Below are positions 10,299 through 60,326 of a DNA stretch of 64,000 nucleotides, in pieces. The position numbers and the translations under genes are program-made. This DNA is from an uncultured Candidatus Saccharibacteria bacterium (lineage in GTDB: Bacteria > Patescibacteriota > Minisyncoccia > UBA6257 > 2-01-FULL-56-20), in contig CAYWDX010000002.1 of assembly GCA_964456235.1 (NCBI GenBank), positions 14,061 to 78,060 of the forward strand, given 5' to 3'. The notes below the pieces were generated by a model, which searched no databases, was not told the origin of the DNA, and saw nothing but the letters and a program-made list of their open reading frames with translations. Every line of letters starts with the position of its first letter. Within the stretch, counting starts at the first letter, position 1.

Positions 10299-10325
10299 AA
10301 TTAGGCCGCGCCGCGGCGGCAGCGG

Positions 10326-10949: not shown

Positions 10950-11018
10950 CTCGCTTTCAGCATCGCGACCCACAGATGAACCGGGCATGAAATGCATCGA
11001 ATATGCTACTCTAATATT

Positions 11019-14806: not shown

Positions 14807-14891
14807 ATTCATGCGCGCTATGAGTCGCGCCGCGTTGTAAGGGCAGATTATGCCAGCAAAATGCGCTGCAGTCGTATGGTACAATGAAAAC

Positions 14892-16124: not shown

Positions 16125-17202
16125 CCAGAAGTCAGCCGGGCTGCTTTCTAAAATTTTTGACCGCATCACCGTCCAGGAGCGGATCAATTTCGCGCGCCAC
16201 CTCGCGCTCGTCATCAAGGCGGGCCTCCCGATTTATGAAGGTCTTAAGATTATCCAAACGCAAAGCACCTCAAAAGTTTTGAACAAGGTGGTTGGGGAAT
16301 TGATGGAGAGCGTGAATAGTGGAAAATTTTTGGCAGAAGGGTTGCAGCGGTATGAACACTTGTTCGGCCCGTTCTTCATCAATATTGTGCGCGTCGGCGA
16401 ATCGAGCGGGACGCTTTCAAAAAACCTTTTGTATCTTGCCGAGGAATTGAGGCGAGAAAAAGAATTAGAAACAAAAGTGCGTTCAGCGATGGTTTACCCG
16501 CTCGTGATTCTCGTTGCAACGCTTGGCGTCGCGGGGTTCCTTACCTTCTACGTGTTTCCCAAACTCGTCCCCGTTTTTGGCAGCCTGAACATTCAGCTGC
16601 CGGTCACGACGCGCATCCTCCTTGCGATTCTCGACTTCCTTCGCAACTACGGCTTCGGGGCGCTCGTTGGTGTGGCCGCGCTCGTCGTCGGCGTTCGGGT
16701 CCTCATAAAAAAAGTGGCGCCGGTGCGATACATTATCGATGAATCACTCGTCTTTATTCCGGTCGTTTCCGACCTTACGGTGAGCGTGAATATGGTGAAC
16801 TTCGCGCGCGTCCTCGGCCTGCTCTTGAAGAGCGGCGTAAAAATTGTCGAAGCGCTTGAGATTACGAAAAATACGTTCGGCAATTTGGTGTACCAACGCA
16901 TCTTGCATCTGGCAGGCGACACCATGAAGCAAGGAGGCGAACTCGGCAGCTATTTGATGCAAAAAAAACGCTACTTCCCGCCGCTCGTTTCGGGCATGGT
17001 GCGCATCGGCGAGAGCACGGGCAACCTCGAAGAAAACCTAGAATATCTTTCCGAATATTATGACGACGAAGTCGATACGAAGCTTCACTCGCTCACGTCG
17101 CTTATCGAGCCGCTCATGCTCCTCGTGATGGGCTTGCTGGTAGGATTCGTCGCCCTCTCTATTATTACGCCGATCTATTCCATTTCGCAGGGCATCCACT
17201 AA
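16117..17202 (+). CDS. pilC: Type IV pilus inner-membrane platform protein PilC/GspF
   Basis: Two GspF repeats, three TM segments, and an 8 nt overlap with pilB. Confidence 0.9.
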   Translation: MSNQKSAGLLSKIFDRITVQERINFARHLALVIKAGLPIYEGLKIIQTQSTSKVLNKVVGELMESVNSGKFLAEGLQRYEHLFGPFFINIVRVGESSGTLSKNLLYLAEELRREKELETKVRSAMVYPLVILVATLGVAGFLTFYVFPKLVPVFGSLNIQLPVTTRILLAILDFLRNYGFGALVGVAALVVGVRVLIKKVAPVRYIIDESLVFIPVVSDLTVSVNMVNFARVLGLLLKSGVKIVEALEITKNTFGNLVYQRILHLAGDTMKQGGELGSYLMQKKRYFPPLVSGMVRIGESTGNLEENLEYLSEYYDDEVDTKLHSLTSLIEPLMLLVMGLLVGFVALSIITPIYSISQGIH

Positions 17203-18962
17203 TGAACGGATCGCGGCGCGGCACGAGCTTAATAGACCTGATGCTTTCGATCGCGATCATCGCCGTGCTTTTTGGTGGCATTTATCTTGTTTATTTTTCA
17301 CTCTTGACCGCGATTGGAAATATCAGCGTGCGGACGGCGGCGGCCTCTGCCATGCAGGCCGAGATCGAAATGATCCGCAACCTGCCCTATACGAGCGTAG
17401 GTACGGTGGGCGGCGTACCTGCCGGAGTTATTCCTCAAACACAGGCGGTTGTTTTCGGGAAATATACATTTAATCTTCAGACCACAATTAGGAATATTGA
17501 CGATCCCTTGGATGGCACTGTGAGCGGTTCGCCGTCGCCGGTAGATACTGCGCCTGCCGACTATAAACTTGTTGCCATCCAGACGACCTGCCCGCTGTGT
17601 TCAGATTTTGTTTCGGTTGAAGTTACAACGACCATCGCACCAAAAAATTTGGAAAGTGCGCCGACGAACGGATCGCTCTTTTTATATGCAATCAACGCCA
17701 ACGGGGATCCCGTTCCTGACGCGACCATACACGTGGTAAACGCATCCGTTACGCCCTCGATCGATTTAGTCGACACGACGAACATGAGCGGAGTCTTGCA
17801 GTTGGTAGGTGTGCCAACAAGCACCTTGCGATACCACATCACGGCAACAAAGGCAGGTTATTCAACTGACCAGACCTACGCGCCGGGTGCAGCTTCAAAC
17901 CCGAATCCGGTTAAGCCCGACGCAACGGTCGTCGCGCAAGGCCTCACGAGCGTTACCTTCGCGATCGATCAACTTGCCAATCTGACGATAAATGCGTCAG
18001 ATAATCGATGTGTGGCGACGAGCAGCGTGCCATTCACCCTCCGGGGTGCAAAATTGATTGGCACGAACCCAAGCACCTTTAAGGTGTCGATGAATGGCAC
18101 GACGAACGCGCAAGGATCGTTCACGACGTCGTCACTTGAATGGGACGCCTATACAATCGGCCTTGGAACGAGCAGTCGCATTCTTGCAGGGACGATTCCA
18201 CTCAATCCGCTCGTTGTGGATCCAGCGTCGAGTTCGACCTTCAAACTCATCGTCCAGTCGGGAGCTACCCCCTCGCTCCTCGTCATCTTGCGAGATTGGT
18301 CAACCGGCGCATCGATTTCGAATGCGAGCGTGACGATTACGAGGAATGGTGCTTCGCAAACGGCTACGACGGGCCATGCGTTTGTTTCAGATACTGCATG
18401 GAGCGGTGGCCAATATTCTTCGAAGAGTGCAGGATTGAGCGCGAACGGACAACTTACATTATTCACGAATGCTTCGGGCACGTATGACATCAATACCAAC
18501 GATTGGTTTATCTCGCAGACGATCGACCTCGGCGGTTCCCATGAAACGCTCTACGGCATCAACTGGAATCCTACGTCGCAACCCGCTGGCGCAAGTGTTT
18601 CTTTCCAGCTCGCAGCAAATAATGATAATGCGACGTGGAATTTTATCGGGCCAGATGGCACCGCAGCAACGTATCTCACGAGCTCGACGCAAACCATGCC
18701 GGCCGCGCTCTCGGGAAAGCGTTATCTTCGCTATCAAGTGTATTTGAATACGACCGATGGGACGGTAGCGCCAACGCTCGACGACGTAACGTTTGAATTT
18801 AATGCTGATTGCGTGCCGCCGGCGCAGGCGTTGTTTACGGGCCTGGTGCAAAACGGAACGTACGCTATTGATGTATCGGCGCCGGGCTATGCTTCGGCGA
18901 CCAGCAGTAAAACGGTTGGTTCTGACGCGACCTCGACAGACCTCTACTTAATACATTCTTAA
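17202..18962 (+). CDS. Large pseudopilin-like protein (586 aa) with an N-terminal prepilin-type TM helix
   Basis: RRGTSLIDLMLSIAIIAVL class-III-signal-like N-terminus. Long Thr/Ser/Asn-rich beta-rich extracellular region. Confidence 0.6.
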   Translation: MNGSRRGTSLIDLMLSIAIIAVLFGGIYLVYFSLLTAIGNISVRTAAASAMQAEIEMIRNLPYTSVGTVGGVPAGVIPQTQAVVFGKYTFNLQTTIRNIDDPLDGTVSGSPSPVDTAPADYKLVAIQTTCPLCSDFVSVEVTTTIAPKNLESAPTNGSLFLYAINANGDPVPDATIHVVNASVTPSIDLVDTTNMSGVLQLVGVPTSTLRYHITATKAGYSTDQTYAPGAASNPNPVKPDATVVAQGLTSVTFAIDQLANLTINASDNRCVATSSVPFTLRGAKLIGTNPSTFKVSMNGTTNAQGSFTTSSLEWDAYTIGLGTSSRILAGTIPLNPLVVDPASSSTFKLIVQSGATPSLLVILRDWSTGASISNASVTITRNGASQTATTGHAFVSDTAWSGGQYSSKSAGLSANGQLTLFTNASGTYDINTNDWFISQTIDLGGSHETLYGINWNPTSQPAGASVSFQLAANNDNATWNFIGPDGTAATYLTSSTQTMPAALSGKRYLRYQVYLNTTDGTVAPTLDDVTFEFNADCVPPAQALFTGLVQNGTYAIDVSAPGYASATSSKTVGSDATSTDLYLIHS

Positions 18963-18967
18963 TAACT

Positions 18968-19579
18968 ATGCGAAGCGCAAATAGTAAAAAGGGATTTTCT
19001 CTGATCGAAATACTCATCGTGGTCGCGGTGGCGACTTCTATTGTGCTTGTGGTGAGCAAGCTTGGTTCGAATACGTCGGTTTTAAATACGCTCGTCAGTC
19101 GTGAGCTGCAATCGAAAGCTGATATCGAGCAGACACTGCAGATCGTGACCACGGAAATCCGTTCAGCAAGTCCATCCGCGTCGGGTGCGTTTCCCTTAAT
19201 TTCGGCTGCGACGAGTTCATTCTCCTTTTATTCGAACGGTGGCAATAATGGCGTTGCGAAAAGGGTCCACTACTACCTTGCTACGTCGACCATCTATCGT
19301 GGCGTAGTCCAACCAACGGGGACACCGGCGACGTACCCAACCTCGAGTGAAATCCTTACCGCGCTCATAAGCGGCGTAGTTGTACCGACCTCATCACCGC
19401 TTTTTACCTATTACGATACGGAATATACCGGCACGCAAGCGGCTATGACTTCCACCGCCGACGTGACGGCGATACGGCTCGTGAAGATCAGTTTCTCGGC
19501 GACCGTACAGCCTGCCCAGTCGCCGGCGCCGGAATATTTTTCCCGCTTTGCGGATATAAGAAATTTACGGAGCAACTAA
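18968..19579 (+). CDS. Type IV pilin-like protein (minor pilin or pseudopilin)
   Basis: Canonical prepilin N-terminus KKGFSLIEILIVVAV (G-F-x-x-x-E). Confidence 0.7.
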   Translation: MRSANSKKGFSLIEILIVVAVATSIVLVVSKLGSNTSVLNTLVSRELQSKADIEQTLQIVTTEIRSASPSASGAFPLISAATSSFSFYSNGGNNGVAKRVHYYLATSTIYRGVVQPTGTPATYPTSSEILTALISGVVVPTSSPLFTYYDTEYTGTQAAMTSTADVTAIRLVKISFSATVQPAQSPAPEYFSRFADIRNLRSN

Positions 19580-19596
19580 CGGAAAACGCTTCCTCT

Positions 19597-21048
19597 ATGA
19601 ATATGAAGAAACAACAATCAAAAGGCCAAATCGCTGTCGAGCTCTTGTTCCTTTCTGCAATGATCGCTTCACTTATCACGGGATTCGTTTCTCTGGCATC
19701 GTCATTGCTGGAAATTTCAGTACGGGCCCAAAACAAACTTCAGGCGGCGGCGATCGCTGAGGCGGGGATCGAGTACTACCGTTGGCATCTCGCCCATGCG
19801 CCACAAGATTTTACTGATGGCACCGGCGGGGCTGGGCCGTATGTTCACCAGTATTACGATAAAGACGGCGTCCTCGTGGGTGATTTTTCGCTCGACATCA
19901 TTCCGCCGGCAACGGGTTCGAATGTGGTTACCATCACGAGCACGGGTAAAGTTATTGCAGATTCTTCAGTGCAGAAAATTATTCGGGTGCGCATGGCAAA
20001 CCCATCTTTCCTCGATTATTCACTATTATTAGATGGAAATGTTTATTTTGGGCCAGGCACGATAACCTATGGCACGATTTTCGCAAACGGCGGGGTTCAC
20101 TTTGATGGCGTGGCATATGGACCCGTGCAGAGTGCCGTAAGCACGTGGAATGATCCGAACAATGCCAATAAGAATGAGTGGGGTGTTTATACCACGGCAT
20201 CATCTTCGGATCCGCAACCGCCGACCACCCCGCCGCTTCGCGCAGACGTTTTCACTGCCGGCCGCTCTTACCCGGTACCCGCAGTGGATTTTACGCAAAT
20301 CGTGCAAACGCTTTCATCGCTCAAATCGCGCGCGCAGGCGAGTAATACCTATTTTGGTCCGAGCAACGCTTTCGGTTACGAGTTGAATCTTGCTACATCC
20401 GGCATTTATTCGGTGTATAAAGTGACTTCGATCACGGCCCCGCCGAACGGTTGTACGAATACCAGCCATGAAGCGGGCTGGGGAATCTGGAGCGTAGGTA
20501 CAAAAACATTTTTCGCGAGCGGTACGATCCCCCAAGACGGAGGTGTATTTTTTGCGGAAGATGACTTATGGGTGAAGGGGCAAATAACCAATAAGCACAT
20601 TACGATTGCCGCTGGCCGTTTCCCGGTGAATCCTTCAACCTATGCCAACATCATTGTGAATAGCAGCACGCTCTACACGAGCTACAACGGCTCCGACAGC
20701 ATCGCTTACGTCGCACAAAATAATTTTAACGTCGGGCTTTACAGCGAAGACGACCTTCGTATTGATGGTGTTATCGTCGCGCAAAATGGTCGGGTCGGCC
20801 GCTACTACTATTCGCCGCCGAACGCCCAAAACAATTCCAACAAATGTGGCCCAACCGTAACGCGGACGCGGATCACAATGTTCGGCTCGATCATGAGTGG
20901 CGGTCAATATGGTTTTGGCTTTGATGACAGCACGGGCTATCAAGAGCGCAATATTATTTTCGATCCCAACTTGCGTGGGAACCCGCCGCCATATTTCCCC
21001 GTGCTTTCAACGCAGTACGTGCCGATGTCATGGGAAGAGGTACAATAG
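19597..21048 (+). CDS. Large pilin-like protein (483 aa; PilX/GspK-like minor pilin)
   Basis: N-terminal KGQIAVELLFL prepilin-like helix followed by a large globular domain. Confidence 0.55.
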   Translation: MNMKKQQSKGQIAVELLFLSAMIASLITGFVSLASSLLEISVRAQNKLQAAAIAEAGIEYYRWHLAHAPQDFTDGTGGAGPYVHQYYDKDGVLVGDFSLDIIPPATGSNVVTITSTGKVIADSSVQKIIRVRMANPSFLDYSLLLDGNVYFGPGTITYGTIFANGGVHFDGVAYGPVQSAVSTWNDPNNANKNEWGVYTTASSSDPQPPTTPPLRADVFTAGRSYPVPAVDFTQIVQTLSSLKSRAQASNTYFGPSNAFGYELNLATSGIYSVYKVTSITAPPNGCTNTSHEAGWGIWSVGTKTFFASGTIPQDGGVFFAEDDLWVKGQITNKHITIAAGRFPVNPSTYANIIVNSSTLYTSYNGSDSIAYVAQNNFNVGLYSEDDLRIDGVIVAQNGRVGRYYYSPPNAQNNSNKCGPTVTRTRITMFGSIMSGGQYGFGFDDSTGYQERNIIFDPNLRGNPPPYFPVLSTQYVPMSWEEVQ

Positions 21049-21053
21049 AGAGA

Positions 21054-21527
21054 ATGTCTGAGCGCAAAGGATTCACTATCATTGAACTCATTGTCGTGAT
21101 AGCGCTTATCGCTATCCTCGCCGGTGTTTTTATCAATGCGGCCCGACCGGGTGAGCAGCTTGCGAGCGCGCGGAATACGACGCGAAAGAATGAACTTACG
21201 GTAATTCGCAACGCGATCAGTCAAAATATTGCTGATCAGGCGACGGGGCAATTTTCTTGCTCTTCCGGGCCAATTCCATCTTCGACCGCCCTTATGACTA
21301 GCCAGGCAGGCCCCGGAAATTACGATATTGCATCATGCATTATCTTGCCGTCCGGTGGCTACGGCATTTTTACGATGCCCTTCGATCCCGCCACATCGAC
21401 TTCGTATTACAACTCCGTCACAGATTACAATAGCGGCTACGCGATCATGCAAAACGCTTCAGGAACTATCACGATCACAGCCCCCAATGCCGAGCTCGGG
21501 CAAACAATATCAGTTACGCTCCACTAA
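21054..21527 (+). CDS. Type IV pilin (major-pilin-like)
   Basis: KGFTIIELIVVIALIAILAG N-terminal methylation motif. About 155 aa, with a disulfide pair near the C-terminus. Confidence 0.75.
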   Translation: MSERKGFTIIELIVVIALIAILAGVFINAARPGEQLASARNTTRKNELTVIRNAISQNIADQATGQFSCSSGPIPSSTALMTSQAGPGNYDIASCIILPSGGYGIFTMPFDPATSTSYYNSVTDYNSGYAIMQNASGTITITAPNAELGQTISVTLH

Positions 21528-30914: not shown

Positions 30915-32162
30915 ATGAGGCGTCATCCAGGCCTTTTTTTAACGATTATTGTAGTCGTCGCAATTGCGGCCGGATTCTTTGTTTATCCAGGCGGAGTCAG
31001 TTCAACATGGCGACCGTGGCACCTCGGGCTTGATCTTGTCGGCGGCAGCCATCTCGTATATCAAATCGACCTCTCGAAAGTGAATACGGGCGATCAGGAT
31101 TCGGTTATTCAGGGTTTGCGTGACGTAATCGAAAAGAGAGTAAATCTTTTTGGGGTGAGCGAGCCGCAGGTTTACACCGCACAGTCTGGGAACCAAGCGC
31201 AGCTCATCGTTGATCTTGCGGGTGTCAAAAATGTGAGCGATGCCATCAACGAAATTGGCCAGACGCCGTCCCTCGATTTCCGCGAGGTTGAGCAAGCAAC
31301 GAGCTCTACACAGCCGCAATATATTTACACCAACCTGACGGGGGAATATATCACCGGCGCCCAGCTTGCCTTTGACCCGAACACGGGAGCGCCACAGGTT
31401 CAAATCACGTTTAACAACGCCGGCGCAACCATTTTTGAAAAAATCACTGCGGCGAATGTCGGTAAGCCACTCGCGATTTTTTTGGATGATCAGTTGATCG
31501 AAGCGCCCGTCGTGCAGCAAGCAATCAGTGGCGGGAAAGCCGTGATCAGCGGTAATTTTACGCTTGATACGGCCCGGACACTCGTCGAGCGCTTCAACGC
31601 CGGCGCCCTTCCCGCACCGATCACGTTGATCAACCAGCAAACCGTGAGCCCCACGCTCGGCGCACATTCTTTAAACAAGATGATTGTCGCCGCCATCGCT
31701 GGAACGCTCATCGTGATGCTCTTTATGCTCTTCTATTACCGGCTACTCGGACTTTTTGCTTCACTCGCACTCATTATCTATATCGTGCTCACGCTCGGTA
31801 TTTTCAAAATCGTTCCAGTTACCTTGAGCTTGTCAGGCCTGGCCGGCTTCGTCCTCACGATTGGCATGGCGGTTGATGCGAACATCCTCATCTTCGAGCG
31901 CATTAAAGAAGAATTAAAACGTGGCTTGCCAAAGCACTCGGCGATCGAAGAGGGTTTTCGCCGGGCCTGGCCTTCGATCCGCGACTCCAACGCGTCCACT
32001 ATTATTACGGCTGTTATTCTTTATTATTTCACCTCGAGTTTTGTGCAAGGTTTTGCGCTCACGCTGCTTATCGGTGTCCTCGTAAGCTTGTTCAGCGCGA
32101 TTACCACCACGCGGCTTTTCCTGCGCGCCTTCCTGAAAGATGCAAAACCACACCATGCTTAA
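30915..32162 (+). CDS. secD: Protein translocase subunit SecD
   Basis: N-terminal TM, periplasmic domain, and a C-terminal 5-TM block with SecD/F family motifs. Confidence 0.9.
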   Translation: MRRHPGLFLTIIVVVAIAAGFFVYPGGVSSTWRPWHLGLDLVGGSHLVYQIDLSKVNTGDQDSVIQGLRDVIEKRVNLFGVSEPQVYTAQSGNQAQLIVDLAGVKNVSDAINEIGQTPSLDFREVEQATSSTQPQYIYTNLTGEYITGAQLAFDPNTGAPQVQITFNNAGATIFEKITAANVGKPLAIFLDDQLIEAPVVQQAISGGKAVISGNFTLDTARTLVERFNAGALPAPITLINQQTVSPTLGAHSLNKMIVAAIAGTLIVMLFMLFYYRLLGLFASLALIIYIVLTLGIFKIVPVTLSLSGLAGFVLTIGMAVDANILIFERIKEELKRGLPKHSAIEEGFRRAWPSIRDSNASTIITAVILYYFTSSFVQGFALTLLIGVLVSLFSAITTTRLFLRAFLKDAKPHHA

Positions 32163-33054
32163 CATTGTTGGCAAAAAAGGGATTTGGTTCACAATTTCAG
32201 GCATCCTCATAGCGGCCTCGATTTTTGCGATCGCGCTTTACGGATTCCAACAGAGCCCAGAATTCCTTGGCGGCTCGTTATGGGCGTTTAAGATTGAGGG
32301 AAATACGCCGTCGCTCCAAACCGTTCAGGATTTTTTTGCCAACAACATGAAAATTCAGGGAGCGCAGGTCACCATGAATACCAGCGATCAATCTTTCCTC
32401 GCGCGGTTCAATGCGGTGAGTGAAAACACGCACAAACAATATCTTAATCTTACCCAAAACGAGTGGCCGTCATTCAGCGAATTAAGTTTTTCATCGATCG
32501 GGCCATCGGTTGGCGCAGGACTTAGAAAAAATGCGATGGTCGCAATCGTCCTGGTGATCATCGGCATCTCAATATATGTCGCATACGCATTCCGTAAGAC
32601 ATCGCGCCCGGTGAGTTCGTGGAAATATGGCTGGGTCACCCTCCTCACCCTCTTCCACGACGTCTGCATTCCGGCCGGACTCCTCGCGGTGCTCGGCCAT
32701 TTCGCGCACGTCGAGATCGATACGAATTTTATCGTCGCGTTACTCGTCGTGATGGGCTTCTCGGTGCACGACACGATCGTCGTGTTTGACCGCACGCGCG
32801 AAAATCTCGTGACGCGCCGGGGCAAATCATCGTTTGCAACCATCGTGAACGACAGCGTGAACCAATCGCTCGCGCGTTCGATCAATACTTCACTCGCCCT
32901 TATCTTCGTGCTTCTCGCGATGTACTTCGTGGGACCCGCCGACCTCAAATATTTTGTCCTGACGCTCCTCGTCGGCGTGACCACCGGCATCTATTCATCG
33001 ATTTTCGTGGCCAGCCCGATCCTTGTACTCCTCAAGCCGAAGAACGAGCAATAA
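32155..33054 (+). CDS. secF: Protein translocase subunit SecF
   Basis: SecF 6-TM topology. Overlaps the secD 3' end. Confidence 0.9.
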   Translation: MLNIVGKKGIWFTISGILIAASIFAIALYGFQQSPEFLGGSLWAFKIEGNTPSLQTVQDFFANNMKIQGAQVTMNTSDQSFLARFNAVSENTHKQYLNLTQNEWPSFSELSFSSIGPSVGAGLRKNAMVAIVLVIIGISIYVAYAFRKTSRPVSSWKYGWVTLLTLFHDVCIPAGLLAVLGHFAHVEIDTNFIVALLVVMGFSVHDTIVVFDRTRENLVTRRGKSSFATIVNDSVNQSLARSINTSLALIFVLLAMYFVGPADLKYFVLTLLVGVTTGIYSSIFVASPILVLLKPKNEQ

Positions 33055-33131
33055 CGGGCAATCCACAGCCGACGTTGACATTATCGGTAAAAATGATGTA
33101 TATTATTTAGGTCAAAACTGACGAAAAACCT

Positions 33132-34166
33132 ATGCCGATAATGACAAAAATCATTAATGCCGCATTGGCAAACCTGAAGCCCCGCCAAAAAGAAGTGGTG
33201 GCGGCCCGCTTCGGGCTCGAAAAAGAAGGCGGCGAAGGGGAGACGCTTGCTTCGATCGGCGACCGCTTGAAGGTTACGCGTGAACGCGTTCGGCAGATTG
33301 AGGCGAGCGGCATTGCGCTGGCGAAGAAAAGTGTCGCCGAAAATGCCGAAACGACGGCGGTCCTCGAAAAATTAAAGAAATATATTGCTGGCCTCGGCGG
33401 GGTCGCCAAGAAATCCGACGTCATCGACTACGTGACCACCCTCGCGAAGGGAATTCGTCCGAACCAACTCGACTTCCTCGCGGAAGTTTCGAATGCATTC
33501 AAGTTGTATCGGGAAGATGAAAATTTCGTTCCGTTTTATTACATCGGCAACCGCGAATTAAAAGAAGCAAAAGCGTTTGTTGAAAATTGGGTTTCGACGC
33601 TGCGCTCGCGCAAAGACAAAATAATGGATGGTGCCTACCAGGTACAGCTTGCCAGTTTCTTGAAGACCAAGACTATGGCGAGCGTTGTCGGCGAAAATTA
33701 TTTGGGAATTGCGAAGCACGTTGGCCAGAATCCGTATGGTGATCGGGGCCTTCGCGAGTGGCCGGAAATTCAGCCGGCGACCGTACGCGATAAGATTTAT
33801 CTCGTCCTCAAAAAGAAAGGCGCTCCACTTCACTTTGAAGATATCGCAAAACACATCAACAAAATGAAATTCGATGAACAGGCGGCGCTCGCTCCAACGG
33901 TCCACAATGAACTCATCAAGGATGAGCGTTTTGTGCTCGTCGGCCGGGGTATGTACGGCCTTCGCGAGCACGGCTACGAGCCGGGCACCGCGCGCGAAGT
34001 TATCGCCAAAGTGCTCAAGATCGAAGGGCCGCTTCGGGCGAACGATGTGTTGCAGGCGGTGAGCAAGCAGCGTTTCTTTAAGCAGAACACCGTACTGATC
34101 AACCTTCAGAATCGAAATTATTTTGAACGGATGTCCGACGGGCGCTATCGCGTCCGCGAGGCCTAA
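33132..34166 (+). CDS. DNA-binding protein with an N-terminal sigma-70 region-4-like HTH and a C-terminal HARE-HTH-like domain
   Basis: KEVVAARFGL...TLASIGDRLKVTRERVRQIEASGI matches the region-4 pattern. The C-terminal AREVIAKVLKIEGPLRANDVLQAV resembles HARE-HTH. Confidence 0.55.
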   Translation: MPIMTKIINAALANLKPRQKEVVAARFGLEKEGGEGETLASIGDRLKVTRERVRQIEASGIALAKKSVAENAETTAVLEKLKKYIAGLGGVAKKSDVIDYVTTLAKGIRPNQLDFLAEVSNAFKLYREDENFVPFYYIGNRELKEAKAFVENWVSTLRSRKDKIMDGAYQVQLASFLKTKTMASVVGENYLGIAKHVGQNPYGDRGLREWPEIQPATVRDKIYLVLKKKGAPLHFEDIAKHINKMKFDEQAALAPTVHNELIKDERFVLVGRGMYGLREHGYEPGTAREVIAKVLKIEGPLRANDVLQAVSKQRFFKQNTVLINLQNRNYFERMSDGRYRVREA

Positions 34167-34218: not shown

Positions 34219-35526
34219 ATGGCACAGAATATCACCTCGTTTTTGAGTCTCCCGCCGGCGTTCGCCCCCTTTCTCGCGAGCGTGCTGGAGGTTTGGGATG
34301 TCGTTTGGTGGCTCGTCCTCCTCGCCATCACCAGTATCTTTTTTTGGGAGGCCTGGCTTCTCTATCTCGGCTGGCGGTGGGCCCGCGGCCTAAACTTCAA
34401 GCTGCTTGAAATTAAAGTACCTAAAAATATCCTTAAAACTCCTAAAGCGATGGAGCAGATTTTTGCCGCCGCGCATGCGCCCTATTCATATGGCATTCGT
34501 CCGTTCGATTATTACTGGAAGGGGCAGCGTGAATCGTGGATGTCATTTGAACTCATCGGCAAGGCGGGGGAGAGCCGCTTTTATCTTCGCGTTCCGGCGA
34601 AACTGCGCAACATGATGGAGTCGGCAATCTATAGCCAATACCCGGAAGCAGAAATTAACGAAGCGGAAGATTATTTGCACGCGATGCCGCACATCATTCC
34701 CAATAAAGATTTCACGTGCGAAGGATTTGAGGAAGAATTGCGCCACGAGGATTATCTGCCGCTCCGCACCTACCCCCTGTTTGAAGATCCAACCGAAGAG
34801 CGCCGCGTCGATACCATCGGCGGATTACTCGAGGTCATGTCAAAATTGCGAGGAGATGAACAGATCTGGTTACAGATCATCATCGTTCCAACCGGCGAAG
34901 ATTTCAGAAAGGAGGGCGAAGAGGCGATCAACGAGATTCTCCATATTGAAGATGAAGAAAAGAAAAGCCCCAGCATATTTCCCAGTCTTGACCTGGGTGT
35001 TTCGCTGGGCGACGCATTGACGGCTCCTTTTAAACATCCAGAACCCGCCCAGGAACGCAAAGAAGAGCGCGAGCAAAAATTGCGCTTTTTGGTCGCAACC
35101 CACGAGAAGGAACGCGCGGAGGCGATCCAACGAAAGATTGCAAAGCTCGCGTTCCACGCGACCGTCCGGTTTTTGGTCATCGATCGCAAGGAACAACCGG
35201 CGCGACAGGAATTTATCATGCCGCTCCATGGCTATATGCGACAATTCAACACTCAAGACTTAAACTCGCTGAAGCCGACCAAGGCTACGACGACGGCGAG
35301 CTATGCCGTGCGCGGCCTGTTCAAGAAACGCCGCATCCATTGGCGCCAACGCTCGCTCTATGAGCACTATTATTTCATCGTGCCGGCACATCATGCCTCG
35401 ATTCTGAATATCGAAGAGCTGGCGACAATATTCCACTTCCCAACGACCACCGTCGCGACGAGCGAACTCGAAAAGGTGGAGTCGCGCAAAGGAACCCCGC
35501 CGGCGGCGCTCCCGCTCGCCGAATAA
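34219..35526 (+). CDS. Membrane protein (N-terminal 1-2 TM plus a 380-aa cytoplasmic domain), partner of the downstream TraD-like ATPase
   Basis: The hydrophobic N-terminus VVWWLVLLAITSIFFWEAWLLYLGW is followed by a charged Glu/Lys/Arg-rich soluble domain. Lies 21 nt upstream of the ATPase. Confidence 0.55.
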   Translation: MAQNITSFLSLPPAFAPFLASVLEVWDVVWWLVLLAITSIFFWEAWLLYLGWRWARGLNFKLLEIKVPKNILKTPKAMEQIFAAAHAPYSYGIRPFDYYWKGQRESWMSFELIGKAGESRFYLRVPAKLRNMMESAIYSQYPEAEINEAEDYLHAMPHIIPNKDFTCEGFEEELRHEDYLPLRTYPLFEDPTEERRVDTIGGLLEVMSKLRGDEQIWLQIIIVPTGEDFRKEGEEAINEILHIEDEEKKSPSIFPSLDLGVSLGDALTAPFKHPEPAQERKEEREQKLRFLVATHEKERAEAIQRKIAKLAFHATVRFLVIDRKEQPARQEFIMPLHGYMRQFNTQDLNSLKPTKATTTASYAVRGLFKKRRIHWRQRSLYEHYYFIVPAHHASILNIEELATIFHFPTTTVATSELEKVESRKGTPPAALPLAE

Positions 35527-35547
35527 TTTTTTGTTATCACCGCCACC

Positions 35548-37197
35548 ATGCAGATTATGGATGAAAATGTAATCACGCCACTCGGCATCACAAATGCCCG
35601 GGGCACCAAAAAGAAATTCGGCGTCAAAATCGATGACCGCCGCCGCCACGTCTATGTGGTTGGAAAAACTGGTGTCGGCAAAACGACGCTTTTAGAAAAT
35701 ATGGCGATTTCCGACATGGAAAGCGGGAAGGGCGTTGCCATCATCGATCCGCACGGCGAATTTGCAGAAAAAATGCTCAACTTCGTCCCCGAGAACCGCC
35801 TCGACGACGTGATCTATTTTGATCCGTCCGATATCGAAAATCCTATTGCATTTAACCCGATGGAGCAGGTGGGGACCGAGTTCCGGCACCTGGTCGCTTC
35901 GGGCATCATGGGTGTTTTTAAAAAGATCTGGCCCGACGCCTGGTCGGCGCGCATGGAATATATTTTGAACAATACCTTGCTCGCGCTCCTCGAATATCCC
36001 GGGTCAACGCTCCTCGGCATCCTGCGCATGTTTGCCGAGCCGAACTATCGCAAGAAAATCGTTGATAACTTGAAGGATCCGGTCATCAAAGCATTCTGGC
36101 AGAACGAATTTGCACGCTACACGCAGCGGCTCGAAACCGAAGCGCTCGCCGCGATCCAAAACAAGGTGGGTCAGTTTGTTTCAAACCCACTCATCCGTAA
36201 CATCCTCGGGCAGTCGCGCTCAGCGCTCAACATGCGCGAGATTATGGACCAGGGAAAAATCCTTATCGTAAACCTTTCGAAGGGCAAGATGGGCGAAGAT
36301 AATTCTGCGCTCCTCGGCGCCATGATCATCACCCGGCTCCAGCTCGCCGCCATGTCGCGGGTCGACGTGGAAGAATCGAAGCGTCGCGACTTTTTCATGT
36401 ATGTCGACGAGTTCCAGAACTTCGCAACCGAATCATTCGCAGGGATTTTGTCTGAAGCACGCAAATACCGCTTGAGCTTGGTGCTCGCCCATCAATACAT
36501 CGGCCAATTGGTTACCGACCAGTCAACGCGGGTGCGCGATGCCGTTTTTGGAAACGTCGGGACCATCGTCACATTCCGAGTTGGCGCCCCTGACGCGGAA
36601 TTTCTCGAAAAAGAATTTATGCCCGAGTTTATGCAGCAAGATCTCGTTAATCTTGCCAAAGCCAATATTTATATAAAATTAATGATTGACGGCGTGGCTT
36701 CGCGGCCATTTTCGGCGACCACCATAGCGCCCAAAGCGTTGCCGCTCGCCTCATATCGCGACGTCATCATCCAAAATAGTCAGAAGCGCTACGGAACGCC
36801 GCGGCGGGTCGTTGAGGAACGCATCGCGGGGGAATGGGCCGCAACGAGCGAAGACATGATCCGAGAAAAATTGGGGCGTCAAAACGAGCGGAATCTTGAC
36901 GCGACGCTTGCTCCGCGGGGCGAGCGTTCAGACACGCAACCTGGTAGGGGCGCGCCTCGAACACCGCAAATAACAGAACGCCGCGCTGGTATGGAGCGTC
37001 GTGGCGAGGGGGAGTCGGCTTCGGCAGGCGAAGGTGAGCGCCCCAGAAAACCGGCCGCGCCATTGAGAGCTAAACCGAGCGCACCAAAACAATTTCCTAA
37101 ATCAAATGTCGATATCAACGAGCTTCGCCGCGCGATTAGTGATTCCTTGAGTGACCATGACCAAGAAAAAAAAGATCAGCCAGAAGCGGGCGGGTAA
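35548..37197 (+). CDS. TraD/VirD4/TrwB-family (FtsK-HerA superfamily) P-loop ATPase. Soluble, with a disordered basic C-terminal tail.
   Basis: Walker A VVGKTGVGKTT, an IIDPHGEF block, Walker B FFMYVDEFQNF, and an LVLAHQY motif. No TM segments. Confidence 0.7.
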   Translation: MQIMDENVITPLGITNARGTKKKFGVKIDDRRRHVYVVGKTGVGKTTLLENMAISDMESGKGVAIIDPHGEFAEKMLNFVPENRLDDVIYFDPSDIENPIAFNPMEQVGTEFRHLVASGIMGVFKKIWPDAWSARMEYILNNTLLALLEYPGSTLLGILRMFAEPNYRKKIVDNLKDPVIKAFWQNEFARYTQRLETEALAAIQNKVGQFVSNPLIRNILGQSRSALNMREIMDQGKILIVNLSKGKMGEDNSALLGAMIITRLQLAAMSRVDVEESKRRDFFMYVDEFQNFATESFAGILSEARKYRLSLVLAHQYIGQLVTDQSTRVRDAVFGNVGTIVTFRVGAPDAEFLEKEFMPEFMQQDLVNLAKANIYIKLMIDGVASRPFSATTIAPKALPLASYRDVIIQNSQKRYGTPRRVVEERIAGEWAATSEDMIREKLGRQNERNLDATLAPRGERSDTQPGRGAPRTPQITERRAGMERRGEGESASAGEGERPRKPAAPLRAKPSAPKQFPKSNVDINELRRAISDSLSDHDQEKKDQPEAGG

Positions 37198-37825
37198 AAA
37201 ATTCCACCTCCTCACGGTCTTCCCGCAGATCGCCGGTTCCTATATACAGGAATCGTTTTTGAAACGGGCGCAAGAGAAAAAACTGGTAACGATCGTGTCG
37301 CACGACATCCGCAAATTTACCCGCGACAAACACAAGAAGGTGGATGATCGACCGTTTGGCGGGGGACCGGGCATGGTTCTAAAAGTCCAACCCATCGCCG
37401 ACGCCGTGAAGCAGATTATTTCGCGATCCAAAATTCCGGCAAAAAAGCGGCGCACCATTCTCTTTTCACTGCGCGGGAAGAAGCTGAATCACACCCTGGT
37501 GCGCCGACTGCTGCGCTACGATGAACTCATTCTTATTTGTGGCCGCTACGAAGGCGTTGACGAGCGCGTCGCGGAGCATGTTGCGGACGAAGAAATCTCG
37601 CTTGGCGATTTCGTGCTGTCGGGCGGCGAACTGCCGGCGCTCGTGTTGATTGAGGCGGTATGCCGCTACATCCCAGGATTTCTCGGCAAGCAGGAATCGC
37701 TCGAAGATATCAAGGGATCGTATCCAACCTATACTCGCCCAGAAAAAATCGGCCAGTGGAAGGTGCCAGGGGTGCTTTTGAGCGGTAACCATCGCAAAAT
37801 CGCCGAATGGCGACGCAAACATTAA
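37151..37825 (+). CDS. trmD: tRNA (guanine37-N1)-methyltransferase
   Basis: SPOUT knot motifs (RPFGGGPGMVLK, ICGRYEGVDERV, SLGDFVLSGGELPA). The start overlaps the upstream ATPase tail. Confidence 0.9.
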   Translation: MTMTKKKKISQKRAGKKFHLLTVFPQIAGSYIQESFLKRAQEKKLVTIVSHDIRKFTRDKHKKVDDRPFGGGPGMVLKVQPIADAVKQIISRSKIPAKKRRTILFSLRGKKLNHTLVRRLLRYDELILICGRYEGVDERVAEHVADEEISLGDFVLSGGELPALVLIEAVCRYIPGFLGKQESLEDIKGSYPTYTRPEKIGQWKVPGVLLSGNHRKIAEWRRKH

Positions 37826-37879
37826 TGGTAAGGCAGCGGCTTTAGGAAAAATTTAACCCCGCTGCGCTAGTATTGCCGA

Positions 37880-38998
37880 ATGCATGAACGGTGGCACCCG
37901 GCCGATTTTGCGTTCGGAATCGCCCTTTCTTTTATCTGGGGCATTGCTATCGCAAGTTTCAATTTGCCAATGCCGATGATCGTCATTCCATCGCTTGTGG
38001 CAACGGCCAGTTCAATTACGATGGGCCGCGGTAGCTTGGCCGAAATAATAACTCTGCTCGTTACAACCGTTGGCGGAATTTTCTATTTCAATCACTATGC
38101 GCCGCGAACATTTCCAACCCTGCCCATTCAGGCATCATTTGCTTCGTTGAAGCGGATCTTTATCGCGAATATTTATACTGCGTTGCCCGACGATCAAGCC
38201 GCGCTCCTTGCCGGGATATTATTTGGCGATAAAACAAGCTTGCCTGCAACGTTAAAAACGGACCTCGGCGCATCCGGCGTGTCGCACCTCGTCGCGGTTT
38301 CCGGCTACAACATTAGCATTATATTGCTCACGGTCCGTCAAGTGTTAGGCAGATTTTTGAATCGCCGCAGGACGTTTTGGGGTGCCATCATTTTTCTTGG
38401 TGCATTCATGCTCATGATCGGCGTCCAGATATCTGCGATCCGCGCTTCGGTTATGGCGGTCTTCACGCTCGTCGCGCGCGAAATCGGGGAGCCATTTCAA
38501 ATGCGGAACCCGTTAGTATTTTGCGCGGTCGCCATGCTTCTTATTAATCCAACACTCATGGCGCAGAATATTGGATTTGTCCTTTCGTTCTCCGCAATAA
38601 TCGGCATCGTCTACCTCCGGCCCGCCCTCGTTTCGCTTTTCACTATCGAAACGCGCGGGTGGAAAGACGCCGCCACAACCAGCCTCTCTGCTGAATTAAT
38701 GATCTTGCCGATCGTAAGCGCTGCGTTTGGGAATCCCTCCGCACTATCGATTGCCGCAAACCTTCTCATCTTGCCAACGGTTCCGCTTGCCATGCTCCTT
38801 GGCGCCATGGTCATCGCTACAAAATGGGCGGCCCCATTGGTTGGACCGATCCTCATCTATCAACTTTTCATCATTCACGCCATCGCAAACGCAGGAATCC
38901 CAATTCCGTTGAAATTCAACAGGGCAGCGATTCTCGTCCTTTATTACGGCATAGTCGCGGCACTCATCATCTACTCGCACATCAGGAAGCGAGGATAG
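37880..38998 (+). CDS. comEC: ComEC/Rec2-family DNA internalisation channel (competence domain only, no metallo-beta-lactamase domain)
   Basis: Polytopic membrane protein with the LLAGILFGDKTSLP...SGVSHLVAVSGYNISI competence-domain signature. Confidence 0.8.
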   Translation: MHERWHPADFAFGIALSFIWGIAIASFNLPMPMIVIPSLVATASSITMGRGSLAEIITLLVTTVGGIFYFNHYAPRTFPTLPIQASFASLKRIFIANIYTALPDDQAALLAGILFGDKTSLPATLKTDLGASGVSHLVAVSGYNISIILLTVRQVLGRFLNRRRTFWGAIIFLGAFMLMIGVQISAIRASVMAVFTLVAREIGEPFQMRNPLVFCAVAMLLINPTLMAQNIGFVLSFSAIIGIVYLRPALVSLFTIETRGWKDAATTSLSAELMILPIVSAAFGNPSALSIAANLLILPTVPLAMLLGAMVIATKWAAPLVGPILIYQLFIIHAIANAGIPIPLKFNRAAILVLYYGIVAALIIYSHIRKRG

Positions 38999-54498: not shown

Positions 54499-56589
54499 TT
54501 AGCTTTTTCTCCCTTCTTCTTCGATCTGCCAGATTTCCTTGCCAATATAGCGGCGCGTGGCCTCGAGGTCGGCGCGGAGTTTTTCCTCGCGCGCGCGTTC
54601 TTCAGCAGAGAACGTGCCGCTCACCTTGAGACGCTGGACAGCGGCGAGTTCCGTTTCAATGTCGCGGCTTAACACCAGGAACCCGCGCCGGAGCGACTCC
54701 TCTGCCTCGCGGATAAGTCCTTCGAGATGCCCGCGCTTCGTCCGCGCACGCCGCATGAACGTGATGACGAGAACCAGGAGAACGAGCGCCGCGATAAGAG
54801 AGACTATAAATAGCCCGAAGTAAAACTCTGCATAATCGAGGCGCGCGGCACCGAGTTGGATGGCGGTCGGCGAAACCGTGATATTAACGCGCGCGGAGGG
54901 TGAACTCACGGCATCGCCCGACTTAAGCTCGGCCCAGGCCGCATAATGCCCGCTGTTTAAAAGCTGCGGGAACGAATAGAACCAGTTGCCGTCATCGCCC
55001 GTCGCCGTCGTACCCGAAAACGTATTTCCAGTTTCCGTCTGCTCAATATAAATTTGCACGGTCGCGCGGGGCGCGTTCGCCCATCCGCCAAGATAGAGCA
55101 CTTCATCATTGCCAAGCGAAGTCGGGTAAAGATTCACGAGCGGCGGGCTCAGTGTTAACGCGCCTGCGGCGCGGGCGGGCGGCGCCTGCAGACCGACCCG
55201 CAGTAACCCCGCACCAGCAAGCAGAATGAGGATGGCGACCACTTTCTTTTTCAGAATCGCTTCGTACTCTTTTTGCTTCGCCTTCAACTCGGCCAGCTTC
55301 GCTGCGATGTCGGGGTGCGCCGCCGCTCCTCTTTCTAGACGCTCTTCAAGAGTCCGATGTAAGCGCCACACCTTCCGGAGGAGATATGCAAGAAGCAAGA
55401 TGGCAAGGAGCGCGATCAGGATGAGATATGGCCACGCAAACACCAATCCGCCGGCAATTTGCACGCCGCCGGGCGAAACAATTTGGAAGAAAGGCGTTAC
55501 CAGCGCCAAATTCGTAGTCGCTTGATAATAATTCCCAGCAACGTCGTATGCCCGCACCACGATGTCGTAATGGCCGAGGGGCAGGTGCAGCAGATATGGC
55601 GAGGTAGCCTCAATGAAGAATGGTTTTTGGCCATTGCTCGACGTTGGAGCCGACAGATTCGGATTGAGCGGAATAACTTTCAGTTCATAATGATCAATGC
55701 CCGAAACCGCATCGGTAGTCTCGAACTGAAGAACGGGGCTTTGGTCAGAGGTGTAATTACTGGGAGAAATTTGTATGTTCATCGCAGCGGGCGGCGTCGA
55801 ATCAATGTGGATGGCATAATGCGTCACCCCGCCCCACAAACCATTCCGCAACGTCTTAATGTGGAAATAGTGGGTTCCATCGGGCAGATTCGGATAACTC
55901 ACCGACGTGGCCGCGCCCCGCGAAACATCGGGGGGCGCATCGATAGGCGTGTCATTTAGGACATAGCCATATCCATCGGCGGGCACCGACCCGGGTGACC
56001 ACTCAAACGCCGCCGTGGCGCTGTTGTACCACTTCGATTGATCGGGATCAGTCGGCGAAGTTACCGCAGGCCCGGCCGGCGGCGGAACCGTGAGCGTATA
56101 AACGCCGTTCGTCGTTTGGCCGAGGATGTCGGTCCCCTGGCCGTTATTCAAAAGGACTTTTGACGCATCCAAAAATTTTACGACCGCAGAGCCGGTGCCG
56201 ACGACCCGGAATGTGACGGTTGAAATTAAACCGGCGTTCGTCGCGATGCCGGGATTCGGAAGTGCGCCCACAAAATGGAGCGTGCCGTCAATGTTCGAGA
56301 AGCTCGGCTGCGTGACCCAGGTGCTGATGAACGAGTTCCCGGTGCTCGGCGAGACTACTTGCAGTTTATCCCGCGGGAAACTGAGATCCGCTTCAACGGC
56401 ATTAATAGAATGACCGCCGCTGTTTACATAAAGGGAAATCGTAAAGGTGCTGCCGACCACAAATGATCCCGCTGCTGGCGATATAAAAAGAGACGCCTCG
56501 GCAGCATGAGCGATGCCTCCGAGAGGCAAGATAAAAGCTAAAAGAGGCCAGGCGACGAAATAGAAACTCGCTTTACGGAGAACTCTCAT
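54499..56589 (-). CDS. Surface protein with an N-terminal cohesin-like domain and an internally duplicated module (ectodomain, TM, cytoplasmic coiled coil), repeated twice
   Basis: Signal peptide, then SLFISPAAGSFVVGSTFTISLYVNSGGHSINAVEADLSFPRDKLQVVS (a cohesin-like beta-sandwich start). There are two TM segments, each followed by an Arg/Glu-rich coiled coil. Confidence 0.6.
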   Translation of the reverse strand: MRVLRKASFYFVAWPLLAFILPLGGIAHAAEASLFISPAAGSFVVGSTFTISLYVNSGGHSINAVEADLSFPRDKLQVVSPSTGNSFISTWVTQPSFSNIDGTLHFVGALPNPGIATNAGLISTVTFRVVGTGSAVVKFLDASKVLLNNGQGTDILGQTTNGVYTLTVPPPAGPAVTSPTDPDQSKWYNSATAAFEWSPGSVPADGYGYVLNDTPIDAPPDVSRGAATSVSYPNLPDGTHYFHIKTLRNGLWGGVTHYAIHIDSTPPAAMNIQISPSNYTSDQSPVLQFETTDAVSGIDHYELKVIPLNPNLSAPTSSNGQKPFFIEATSPYLLHLPLGHYDIVVRAYDVAGNYYQATTNLALVTPFFQIVSPGGVQIAGGLVFAWPYLILIALLAILLLAYLLRKVWRLHRTLEERLERGAAAHPDIAAKLAELKAKQKEYEAILKKKVVAILILLAGAGLLRVGLQAPPARAAGALTLSPPLVNLYPTSLGNDEVLYLGGWANAPRATVQIYIEQTETGNTFSGTTATGDDGNWFYSFPQLLNSGHYAAWAELKSGDAVSSPSARVNITVSPTAIQLGAARLDYAEFYFGLFIVSLIAALVLLVLVITFMRRARTKRGHLEGLIREAEESLRRGFLVLSRDIETELAAVQRLKVSGTFSAEERAREEKLRADLEATRRYIGKEIWQIEEEGRKS

Positions 56590-56603
56590 CTTCTATTATT
56601 TTA

Positions 56604-57491: not shown

Positions 57492-57496
57492 AGTGA

Positions 57497-58402: not shown

Positions 58403-58407
58403 TGAAT

Positions 58408-59340: not shown

Positions 59341-59370
59341 TGCGATAGGCTTACTATATCACACGACCAC

Positions 59371-60282: not shown

Positions 60283-60326
60283 TACTAGTATTGTAACAAA
60301 AACGAGGTTTTATCTGGTGTGGATAA

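Follow-up and report, generated by a model that had tools for sequence, protein, structure and literature searches.

A DUF8128 membrane protein and a VirD4/TrwB-like ATPase encoded side by side in Patescibacteria

What is the function of a soluble, coupling-protein-like ATPase encoded together with a membrane partner a short distance upstream of comEC? The question is raised by a stretch of 64,000 nucleotides from an uncultured member of the Patescibacteria, referred to below as the window. A first, sequence-only reading of this DNA proposed that the two genes form a split coupling protein, acting in natural transformation in the place of ComFA. Patescibacteria account for a large share of the diversity of bacteria, and no role has been assigned to most of the genes that they conserve. 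The ATPase has been reported in about 96% of their genomes (2,918 of 3,035).

The locus and the two proteins

The features of the locus are as follows (coordinates in the window).

30915..33054 (+): secD-secF, found upstream of the triad often but not always
33075..33104 (+): promoter-like site TTGACA-18-TATATT (11/12), just 5' of sigHARE, from a consensus scan
33132..34166 (+): sigHARE (sigma4/HARE-HTH protein), 344 aa, conserved upstream neighbour of the DUF8128-ATPase pair
34219..35526 (+): DUF8128 membrane partner, 435 aa
35548..37197 (+): VirD4/TrwB-like P-loop ATPase without transmembrane (TM) segment, 549 aa
37151..37825 (+): trmD (PF01746, 175.6 bits, match from residue 38), outside the conserved module
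37880..38998 (+): minimal ComEC, 372 aa (PF03772 Competence, 133.7 bits; TIGR00360, 77.2 bits), outside the conserved module

The four reading frames described initially (the pair, trmD and comEC) were all confirmed on the forward strand. A gap of 21 nt separates the 3' end of the DUF8128 gene from the ATPase gene, and the listed GTG start of trmD, whose true start is uncertain, overlaps the 3' end of the ATPase gene by 47 nt. The promoter-like site is a pattern match alone, in a region where such sites are not more numerous than expected from shuffling, and is a possible candidate for the start of a transcription unit of three genes or longer. In a Pfam search, ComEC comprised the Competence domain only. 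The pair had been placed next to ComEC and a type IV pilus locus; comEC is indeed two genes downstream, but the pilus genes (PilB 14850-16124, PilC 16117-17202, pilins up to 21527) are 12.7 kb away, with about 12 housekeeping genes between.

The ATPase contains all four of the TrwB/TraD hallmark motifs attributed to it, namely Walker A VVGKTGVGKTT (residues 37-47), IIDPHGEF (residues 65-72), Walker B FFMYVDEFQNF (residues 282-292) and LVLAHQY (residues 311-317). In the window, Walker A is placed at nt 35662-35685 and Walker B at nt 36391-36414. The ATPase scores above the Pfam gathering thresholds for TrwB_AAD_bind (PF10412, residues 29-346, 46.5 vs 20.5 bits), T4SS-DNA_transf (PF02534, 38.1 vs 20.1 bits), DUF87 (37.7 vs 23.2 bits) and TraG-D_C (PF12696, 24.8 vs 22 bits). 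The first and last of these were among the profiles suggested for checking the assignment; the third suggested profile, AAA_10, gave no match in Pfam, nor did CagE_TrbE_VirB. The VirB4 C-terminal ATPase signature was not recovered (P-loop_TraG scored 15.3 bits, below its cutoff of 25.8), and the only sequence matches in the PDB were TrwB and DotL. Judged from sequence profiles, VirD4/TrwB is favoured over VirB4. An all-alpha insertion between Walker A and B, a feature of type IV coupling proteins (T4CPs), is present in the AlphaFold2 (AF2) model as eight helices at about residues 110-234 (pLDDT 74-91), flanked by strands 88-91 and 238-242. A disordered proline-rich tail (about residues 455-520) is followed by a conserved C-terminal helix (residues 523-538). 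The combination of an N-terminal HAS barrel with a NurA or defence partner, characteristic of HerA, was not found. A weak match to the CedD model was confined to the P-loop. An alignment scan of IMG/VR viral contigs revealed no relatives of the ATPase.

A Kyte-Doolittle scan found no hydrophobic segment in the ATPase, as had been proposed. The N-terminal TM domain that T4CPs carry in the same polypeptide is missing, and the sole membrane anchor belongs to the DUF8128 protein encoded upstream. This partner had been described as an N-terminal TM region with a large cytoplasmic domain. It contains a single long hydrophobic helix (residues 16-43 by Kyte-Doolittle; helix 16-56 in the AF2 model, nt 34264-34386), and the large domain is probably cytoplasmic by the positive-inside rule, because a basic stretch follows the helix. 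The conserved motif NIEELATIFHFP is located at residues 397-408, and the C-terminal tail reads PPxxLP. The protein belongs to the Pfam family DUF8128 (PF26449); the match PF26449.1 is precomputed on an identical protein (P0121), on more than 100 homologues and on the related locus L173, whereas NCBIfam gave no match. Comparison of DUF8128 with PDB chains, as single sequence or as profile, returned nothing meaningful, and only fold comparison succeeded: VirB4/TrwK is the closest solved fold to the soluble domain, which has the characteristics of a VirB4-type N-terminal domain. Similarity to the type VII secretion protein EccE was also observed. A literature search for DUF8128 gave no results.

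Fused counterparts of the pair

Single proteins that unite DUF8128 and the ATPase, in the same order as in the pair, are found in Saccharibacteria, on Bacillaceae plasmids and in Bacillus phages. The Bacillaceae form is a 'DUF87 domain-containing protein' of about 885 aa encoded on small Tcp-like plasmids (e.g., NZ_CP154917 and NZ_CP012476), and the phage forms are phage G gp156 / SPO1 gp27.4 (PHROG 5156). All of them differ from the pair in being one polypeptide instead of two. The Saccharibacteria forms share with it the N-terminal TM helix and the upstream sigma4/HARE-HTH gene, whereas those of Bacillaceae and phages have no TM helix and, unlike the pair, lie beside relaxase or VirB4 genes. 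On the Bacillaceae plasmids the fused gene neighbours a gene of the relaxase family where a Tcp-like transfer operon begins, the position of the coupling protein. The TM-bearing DUF8128 partner and the fused counterparts in other lineages support the earlier idea of a split coupling protein. A Rhodococcus plasmid homologue has an N-terminus without similarity to DUF8128. The transferable Bacillaceae plasmid pGIAK1 carries Replic_Relax, VirD4-domain and VirB4-like genes, and that its VirD4-like protein may be of the DUF8128 type is a lead only.

In Southlakia epibionticum, SEML1_0293 is a fused counterpart with matching architecture and gene order, and SEML1_0294 corresponds to sigHARE in architecture and position. 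Published Tn-seq data classify the former as non-essential and the latter as essential, so the two genes are functionally separable. This separability bears on the view that the ATPase is an FtsK-like pump for chromosome segregation or dimer resolution, with the sigma4/HARE-HTH protein recognising DNA. In its favour, T4CPs are akin to FtsK as ring translocases, the ATPase is very highly conserved (median 67.6%, exceeding SecD and TrmD), and its DNA-binding neighbour is conserved along with it. Apart from the Tn-seq data, such a pump is contradicted by the absence of a Pfam match to FtsK_SpoIIIE (PF01580) in the ATPase and by a separate FtsK homologue on the module-bearing Patescibacteria contig L148 (48% identity to the E. 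coli motor), and it appears very improbable. A replacement of FtsK was rejected on account of this homologue and the Tn-seq data.

The conserved triad and its possible roles

Across 168 related loci, the conserved unit consists of a protein with sigma-70 region 4 and HARE-HTH, DUF8128 and the ATPase, often with secDF preceding. The DUF8128 and ATPase genes are almost always adjacent (79/79 and 64/68 loci), and their juxtaposition is not due to chance. sigHARE is located directly 5' of DUF8128 in 71/72 and 58/66 loci. It comprises a sigma-70 region 4 helix-turn-helix (residues 11-60, PF04545, 50.8 bits) and a HARE-HTH winged helix (residues 217-279, PF05066, 35.5 bits), and a profile of 22 homologues matched region 4 of primary sigma factors in the PDB (E 1e-18). 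Nothing relevant was found in the literature on HARE-HTH plus sigma.

The downstream neighbours are much less constant. trmD occurs within 2.5 kb in only 11/65 loci, and comEC is present in the downstream flank at 17/43 loci of close relatives (within 8 kb) and at 3/38 loci of distant relatives. The survey proposed initially thus bore out the conservation of the pair but revealed a loose linkage to comEC, and the pair is not specifically ComEC-linked. This weighs on the proposal that the pair is a cytoplasmic natural-transformation motor that docks on ComEC, pulls single-stranded DNA in and replaces ComFA, the type IV pilus serving on the outside. Besides the proximity of comEC here and in close relatives, the proposal can draw on Kuenenbacteria, where PilB-PilC are directly upstream of the triad, and on S. 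epibionticum, where dprA is five genes from the fused counterpart, which is non-essential in Tn-seq, as are comEC, comF and dprA. The conserved com components of CPR were given as ComEC, DprA and ComFC only, with ComFA unmentioned (Wang et al. 2023), and there is precedent for T4SS-family ATPases that import DNA (H. pylori ComB, to which the P-loop-only CedD match may be added). On the other side, linkage to comEC is lineage-restricted, its spacing varies from 1.3 to 7.9 kb with unrelated genes between, and the 8 kb around the fused gene of Saccharibacteria showed no comEC. All three competence neighbours were picked out post hoc in small genomes. Synteny of dprA and topA is common in general. 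Moreover, the nearest characterisable relatives adjoin relaxases in transfer, i.e., export, operons, and DUF8128 has no known ComEC-interacting feature. The ComFA-replacement idea is unsupported by synteny and seems unlikely.

The statement that no other type IV secretion system (T4SS) genes are present holds for the window, from which VirB4, VirB6 and relaxase genes are absent; an association of the ATPase with these or with VirB8 genes, as expected of a T4CP, was not observed there. Queries with TcpF-like VirB4, TcpH-like and Replic_Relax proteins gave no tblastn matches in the 168 related loci and the window. An origin as a leftover of an integrated conjugative element or as an anti-phage ATPase (MADS mad8, DndH, HerA-type) was also considered. 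The ATPase alone scored 73.2 bits with mad8 and 17.2 bits with DndH, and PADLOC gave no match for the DUF8128 partner. No other defence or mobile-element genes lie near the pair, the GC content around the locus (0.51-0.54) shows no compositional anomaly, and the housekeeping context is fixed in three classes under strong purifying selection, whereas defence islands and conjugative remnants are patchy and variable. This origin is hardly credible, and a MADS (mad8) or Dnd/DptH defence system was rejected, since the other system genes are absent and the neighbours are housekeeping genes.

On the upstream side, secF lies within 3 kb of the triad in 47/61 and 23/40 loci of two classes. This adjacency would suit an exapted membrane translocase that works autonomously and needs neither T4SS nor ComEC, e.g., for DNA donation or export, or for extracting and handling membrane or secreted proteins with SecDF. 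The VirB4-like architecture and the EccE similarity are compatible with an ATPase that handles membrane proteins, the module is more widespread than virB4, and the authors of a recent study (PMC12102498) bring up exaptation themselves. The conserved unit nevertheless contains no polytopic channel protein, the secDF adjacency is missing in Saccharibacteria and many other loci, and an autonomous translocase has neither precedent nor experimental hint, which makes it improbable.

The explanation preferred here is that the pair represents, in gene-fission form, a TM-DUF8128-VirD4/TrwB-type protein widespread in Patescibacteria and acts as a membrane coupling or translocation motor; taken as a whole, it has about an even chance of being correct. 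On the cytoplasmic side of the membrane, the two proteins would form a ring-shaped motor driven by ATP. The overall architecture of this motor would mimic VirB3/VirB4, and its ancestor would be the coupling protein that monoderm (Tcp/FATA-like) systems use in conjugation. Its substrate would most likely be DNA or a DNA-protein complex, because the fused homologue adjoins a relaxase gene in Tcp/FATA-like systems. The module of Patescibacteria is encoded on the chromosome, passed on vertically, strongly constrained and co-located with the sigma4/HARE-HTH DNA-binding protein. The favoured role, offered tentatively, would be the delivery of a conditionally dispensable substrate to a Patescibacteria T4SS encoded elsewhere. 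A rather unlikely reading takes the triad for a self-contained device for DNA transport that is present throughout the Patescibacteria, originated from a conjugative coupling protein and works without a T4SS. If so, it could be, e.g., the cytoplasmic motor still missing from ComEC-dependent uptake, or a pump for donating DNA, in organisms unable to synthesise nucleotides.

With these results, DUF8128 gains a first structural and contextual annotation, and the ATPase emerges as one of the most constrained genes of its neighbourhood, in a module that travels with an essential sigma4/HARE-HTH gene and not with comEC. Testable hypotheses follow for S. epibionticum, the only genetically tractable species, in which SEML1_0293 is dispensable. 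The results also advise against inferring competence functions from the order of neighbouring genes when genomes are small and tightly packed.

Comparison with known systems

Orphan VirD4-like genes in Patescibacteria have already been reported. According to passages of Quinonero-Coronel et al. 2025 (PMC12102498), 5,713 T4CP homologues of this kind were counted, most of them far from virB4, and their exaptation was considered possible. The ATPase described here almost certainly belongs among them. The DUF8128 partner is absent from those passages, and so are its relation to the ATPase by fission and fusion, its VirB4-NTD-like fold and the linkage to the sigma4/HARE-HTH gene. The assignment of this fold, the relation between split and fused forms and the conservation of the triad therefore appear to be new.

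ComFA, the DEAD-box competence ATPase of Firmicutes, belongs to a fold family unrelated to the VirD4-like ATPase. The likeness is restricted to the hypothesised role of a cytoplasmic ATPase at a DNA conduit, and no conserved linkage to comEC or comFC was found for the pair in the loci surveyed. VirB4 (TrwK of R388) with VirB3 differs in carrying the VirB4 signature, which the ATPase lacks at the sequence level, and in its VirB3, VirB6 and VirB8 neighbours, none of which is encoded at this locus. A parallel is offered by T4CPs that have no TM domain and rely on a membrane protein encoded separately, a recognised subclass exemplified by TraJ/TraI of pIP501 (PMC7434980). As in the pair, a soluble VirD4-type ATPase has its membrane partner encoded next door. 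The partners reviewed for this subclass are small, whereas the one described here has 435 aa and a large VirB4-NTD-like domain; and the plasmid pIP501 encodes a full T4SS and a relaxase, whereas the present module is chromosomal and stands alone.

The pair and its neighbours in the window

All four ORFs named in the sequence-only reading were found as described, and they are preceded by a gene with sigma4 and HARE-HTH domains (sigHARE).

Features around the pair
33132-34166: sigHARE, 344 aa, sigma-70 region 4 plus HARE-HTH domain
34219-35526, + strand: DUF8128 (PF26449) partner, 435-aa ORF
35548-37197, + strand: ATPase, 549-aa ORF, 21 nt after the DUF8128 ORF
37151-37825: TrmD ORF, its listed start overlapping the 3' end of the ATPase
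37880-38998: ComEC-like ORF, 372 aa

The ATPase exceeds the Pfam thresholds of TrwB_AAD_bind, T4SS-DNA_transf, DUF87, and TraG-D_C, which bears out the TrwB/TraD-type identity first proposed. The CD1115 family of VirD4-like proteins is its top NCBIfam match, and TrwB and DotL are its sole sequence relatives among solved structures. Its homologues carry the names Paceibacterota, Patescibacteria, or Minisyncoccia, which assigns the window to a CPR bacterium. The predicted model of the ATPase is unreliable across residues 293-392. The reported lack of TM segments was confirmed, with zero hydrophobic segments in the ATPase; the DUF8128 partner has a single long hydrophobic helix at its N-terminus. 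Other T4SS genes had been described as missing, and VirB4, VirB6, VirB8, and a relaxase were indeed not found in the 64-kb window; divergent Patescibacteria VirB4 genes may escape the tblastn with Firmicutes queries that formed part of this search.

The pair had also been placed next to a type IV pilus locus. This does not hold, as PilB, PilC, and the pilins (14850-21527) lie 12.7 kb off, with dnaX, scpAB, a DD-carboxypeptidase, a MraY-like gene, rpsB, tsf, a tRNA, secDF, and other genes, housekeeping ones among them, in between. The pilus cluster itself begins just downstream of a tRNA-Gln and comprises a PilB-like ATPase and a PilC-like platform, two N-methyl pilins, a protein of 586 aa bearing a CarboxypepD_reg domain, and one of 483 aa without Pfam match. 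The 372-aa ComEC (37880-38998) consists of the Competence (channel) domain alone; neither the OB-fold N-terminal nor the metallo-beta-lactamase C-terminal domain was detected with Pfam.

Elsewhere in the window, two sortase genes occupy opposite strands at 9684-11072, near a heavy-metal-binding/MauE-like membrane protein (12658-13275). A run of large ORFs, mostly of unknown function, extends over 54499-63929 on the minus strand, where GC rises to 0.55-0.59. It encodes a 696-aa protein that contains Cohesin and Big_13 domains, and several 300-aa proteins and one 1200-aa protein, all without Pfam match. Its products are candidates for a surface or host-interaction role.

A fission variant of a single protein

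Related loci were compared in a close set, found with the ATPase in 80 species-level genomes, and a distant set, 88 loci found with DUF8128 at 30-41% identity to a Kuenenbacteria member. DUF8128 lies directly upstream of the ATPase in all 79 close cases with enough sequence. The ATPase follows DUF8128 in 64 of 68 distant loci (the exceptions include L148 and L167), with the two genes overlapping or separated by 1-7 nt. In two Colwellbacteria loci (L087 and L088, 10001-12980) the ATPase adjoins DUF8128 on the opposite strand, convergently, so that adjacency outlives an inversion that breaks co-transcription. The ATPase is in tandem duplicate in one lineage (L083, 11650-14980, and L084; 43% identity between copies), which lacks the sigma4/HARE-HTH gene between secF and DUF8128. 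A treble-clef zinc finger (PF23477) forms the C-terminus of many ABY1-like ATPases, where the window ATPase has a conserved helix instead.

Both proteins match one 824-position family, PHROG 5156, the DUF8128 partner at positions 74-366 (E 9e-13) and the ATPase at 404-805 (E 1e-56). In hhalign the DUF8128 profile aligns with gp156 of Bacillus phage G over its N-terminal 290 residues (98.3%, E 1e-14) and with a plasmid protein of 885 aa from B. subtilis (98.6%, E 1e-15), both alignments ending at an ELA..H.P-type motif. Precomputed Pfam annotation places PF26449 and PF10412/PF01935 together in single proteins of 750-1000 aa, one of them from a Saccharibacteria MAG and carrying a TM helix at its N-terminus. 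These fused proteins are the decisive evidence that the idea of a split coupling protein was right in substance; the split-off piece goes beyond the canonical T4CP membrane domain, comprising a VirB4-NTD-like domain along with a TM helix. The pair represents the fission form of a protein with TM-DUF8128-VirD4-like architecture, whose conservation spans at least Paceibacteria, ABY1, and Saccharimonadia.

A housekeeping context shared with a sigma4/HARE-HTH gene

The near-constant neighbour of the pair is sigHARE, not comEC. It immediately precedes DUF8128 in 71 of 72 close and 58 of 66 distant loci, and the Saccharibacteria MAG has the order topA-hypothetical-sigHARE-fused gene. The sigHARE profile hits primary sigma factors in their region 4 (E 1e-18), a near-consensus promoter-like site precedes the gene (a pattern match only), and its product may be a Patescibacteria-specific, uncharacterised RNAP-associated factor. 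The module sits in a housekeeping context: secDF precedes the triad of sigHARE, DUF8128, and ATPase in 47/61 close and 23/40 distant loci, trmD follows in 11 of 65 close loci, and efp, pgk, aspS, mnmA, and secA also occur downstream. Among the loci seen, PilB-PilC stands directly ahead of the triad in Kuenenbacteria only (L085 and L086, 5777-13388, the PilB with an MshEN domain). SecD of several ABY1-like lineages (L081, L083, L085) contains an inserted parvulin-type PPIase (Rotamase) domain that the window SecD lacks. Of the genes in the region, the ATPase shows the strongest conservation, at a median of 67.6% identity to the window protein (TrmD 61%, SecD 58%, DUF8128 38%, ComEC 35%).

The sequence-only reading took the pair for the motor of ComEC-mediated DNA import, replacing ComFA. 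Some circumstantial support remains, but the synteny survey it proposed came out against it. The downstream flank includes comEC in 17 of 43 close and 3 of 38 distant loci, 1.3-7.9 kb away where linked, with differing intervening genes. This role is now improbable; the proposed anatomy of a split, membrane-tethered coupling-type ATPase stands, whereas the proposed function is unsupported. A defence role or an origin as a mobile-element remnant is unlikely, since the housekeeping context is fixed and the composition uniform.

SEML1_0293 of S. epibionticum, which Wang et al. 2023 list in their supplement (PMC10633639), is presumed to correspond to the pair in view of its architecture, length, and gene order, the last being identical to that of the Saccharibacteria MAG locus. 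SEML1_0294, directly upstream, is a 349-aa protein (Sigma70_r4 27-72, HARE-HTH 225-283), parsed there as a sigma4-like domain and three winged helices and rated essential; a few genes beyond it are topA and dprA (PMC10633639). The counterpart of the pair is dispensable, and an FtsK is present on the module-bearing contig L148; both make it unlikely that the pair substitutes for FtsK. In the published data on S. epibionticum, T4SS genes are essential and comEC, comF, and dprA are not.

Relatives on mobile elements and the partner machine

On the small Bacillaceae plasmids NZ_CP154917 (B. subtilis) and NZ_CP012476 (S. clausii), the fused gene heads an operon. Behind it come a gene of the replication-relaxation family, 'conjugal transfer' genes, a TcpF-like ATPase of VirB4 type (835 bits), and a TcpH-like (CD3337/EF1877) membrane protein. 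The fused gene occupies the position expected of a coupling protein, and the family of the pair is related to the occupants of that position on monoderm conjugative plasmids. In phage SPO1 a Replic_Relax nickase abuts gp27.4, and in phage G the VirB4-like gp155 precedes gp156. These contexts tie the DUF8128-ATPase family to monoderm-type DNA transfer machinery, in agreement with the reported MPF-FATA ancestry of Patescibacteria T4SS (PMC12102498). The split arrangement may also exist on haloarchaeal conjugative plasmids, as one haloarchaeal plasmid encodes a 439-aa protein with weak similarity to DUF8128 (hhalign 59%, E 9e-5). On this Natrononativus amylolyticus plasmid (L181, 3469-7835), the gene of the 439-aa hypothetical protein overlaps the start of a 1016-aa T4CP-like gene by 4 nt, downstream of a 'conjugal transfer protein'. 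A 395-aa protein of a Sulfitobacter mediterraneus plasmid (L175, NZ_CP081110, 8980-10167) is 39.8% identical to the Patescibacteria ATPase core (E 2e-86), far nearer than any other non-CPR match. It is flanked by transposases and recombinases, has no DUF8128 gene, and may be a truncated copy acquired horizontally.

Among 3,035 Patescibacteria genomes, Quinonero-Coronel et al. 2025 counted 2,918 with VirD4-like homologues, 5,713 in all. Just 148 of these homologues were near virB4, which was found in 2,417 genomes; exaptation is a possibility their text leaves standing (PMC12102498). Orphan T4CP-like genes in Patescibacteria were therefore already known. Since Patescibacteria T4SS clusters lack a T4CP of their own and T4CP genes are often encoded apart, a T4SS encoded elsewhere is our first, tentative choice of partner machine. 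A non-essential counterpart would fit if the essential T4SS role, e.g., a pilus, needs no coupling protein. This choice is weakened by a module distribution wider than that of virB4 and by SEML1_0142, a second ATPase (1019 aa, TraM-recognition domain, FtsK-like ECOD domain), essential in Tn-seq (PMC10633639). Patescibacteria genomes have roughly two 'T4CP' homologues each, and SEML1_0142 may be the other one; the window yielded no counterpart of it.

DUF8128 and the ATPase would assemble as a membrane-tethered ring ATPase of VirB3/VirB4-like overall architecture, presumably acting on a DNA or nucleoprotein substrate. TraJ/TraI of pIP501 is the recognised precedent for a T4CP that lacks TM segments and has a separate membrane partner (PMC7434980).
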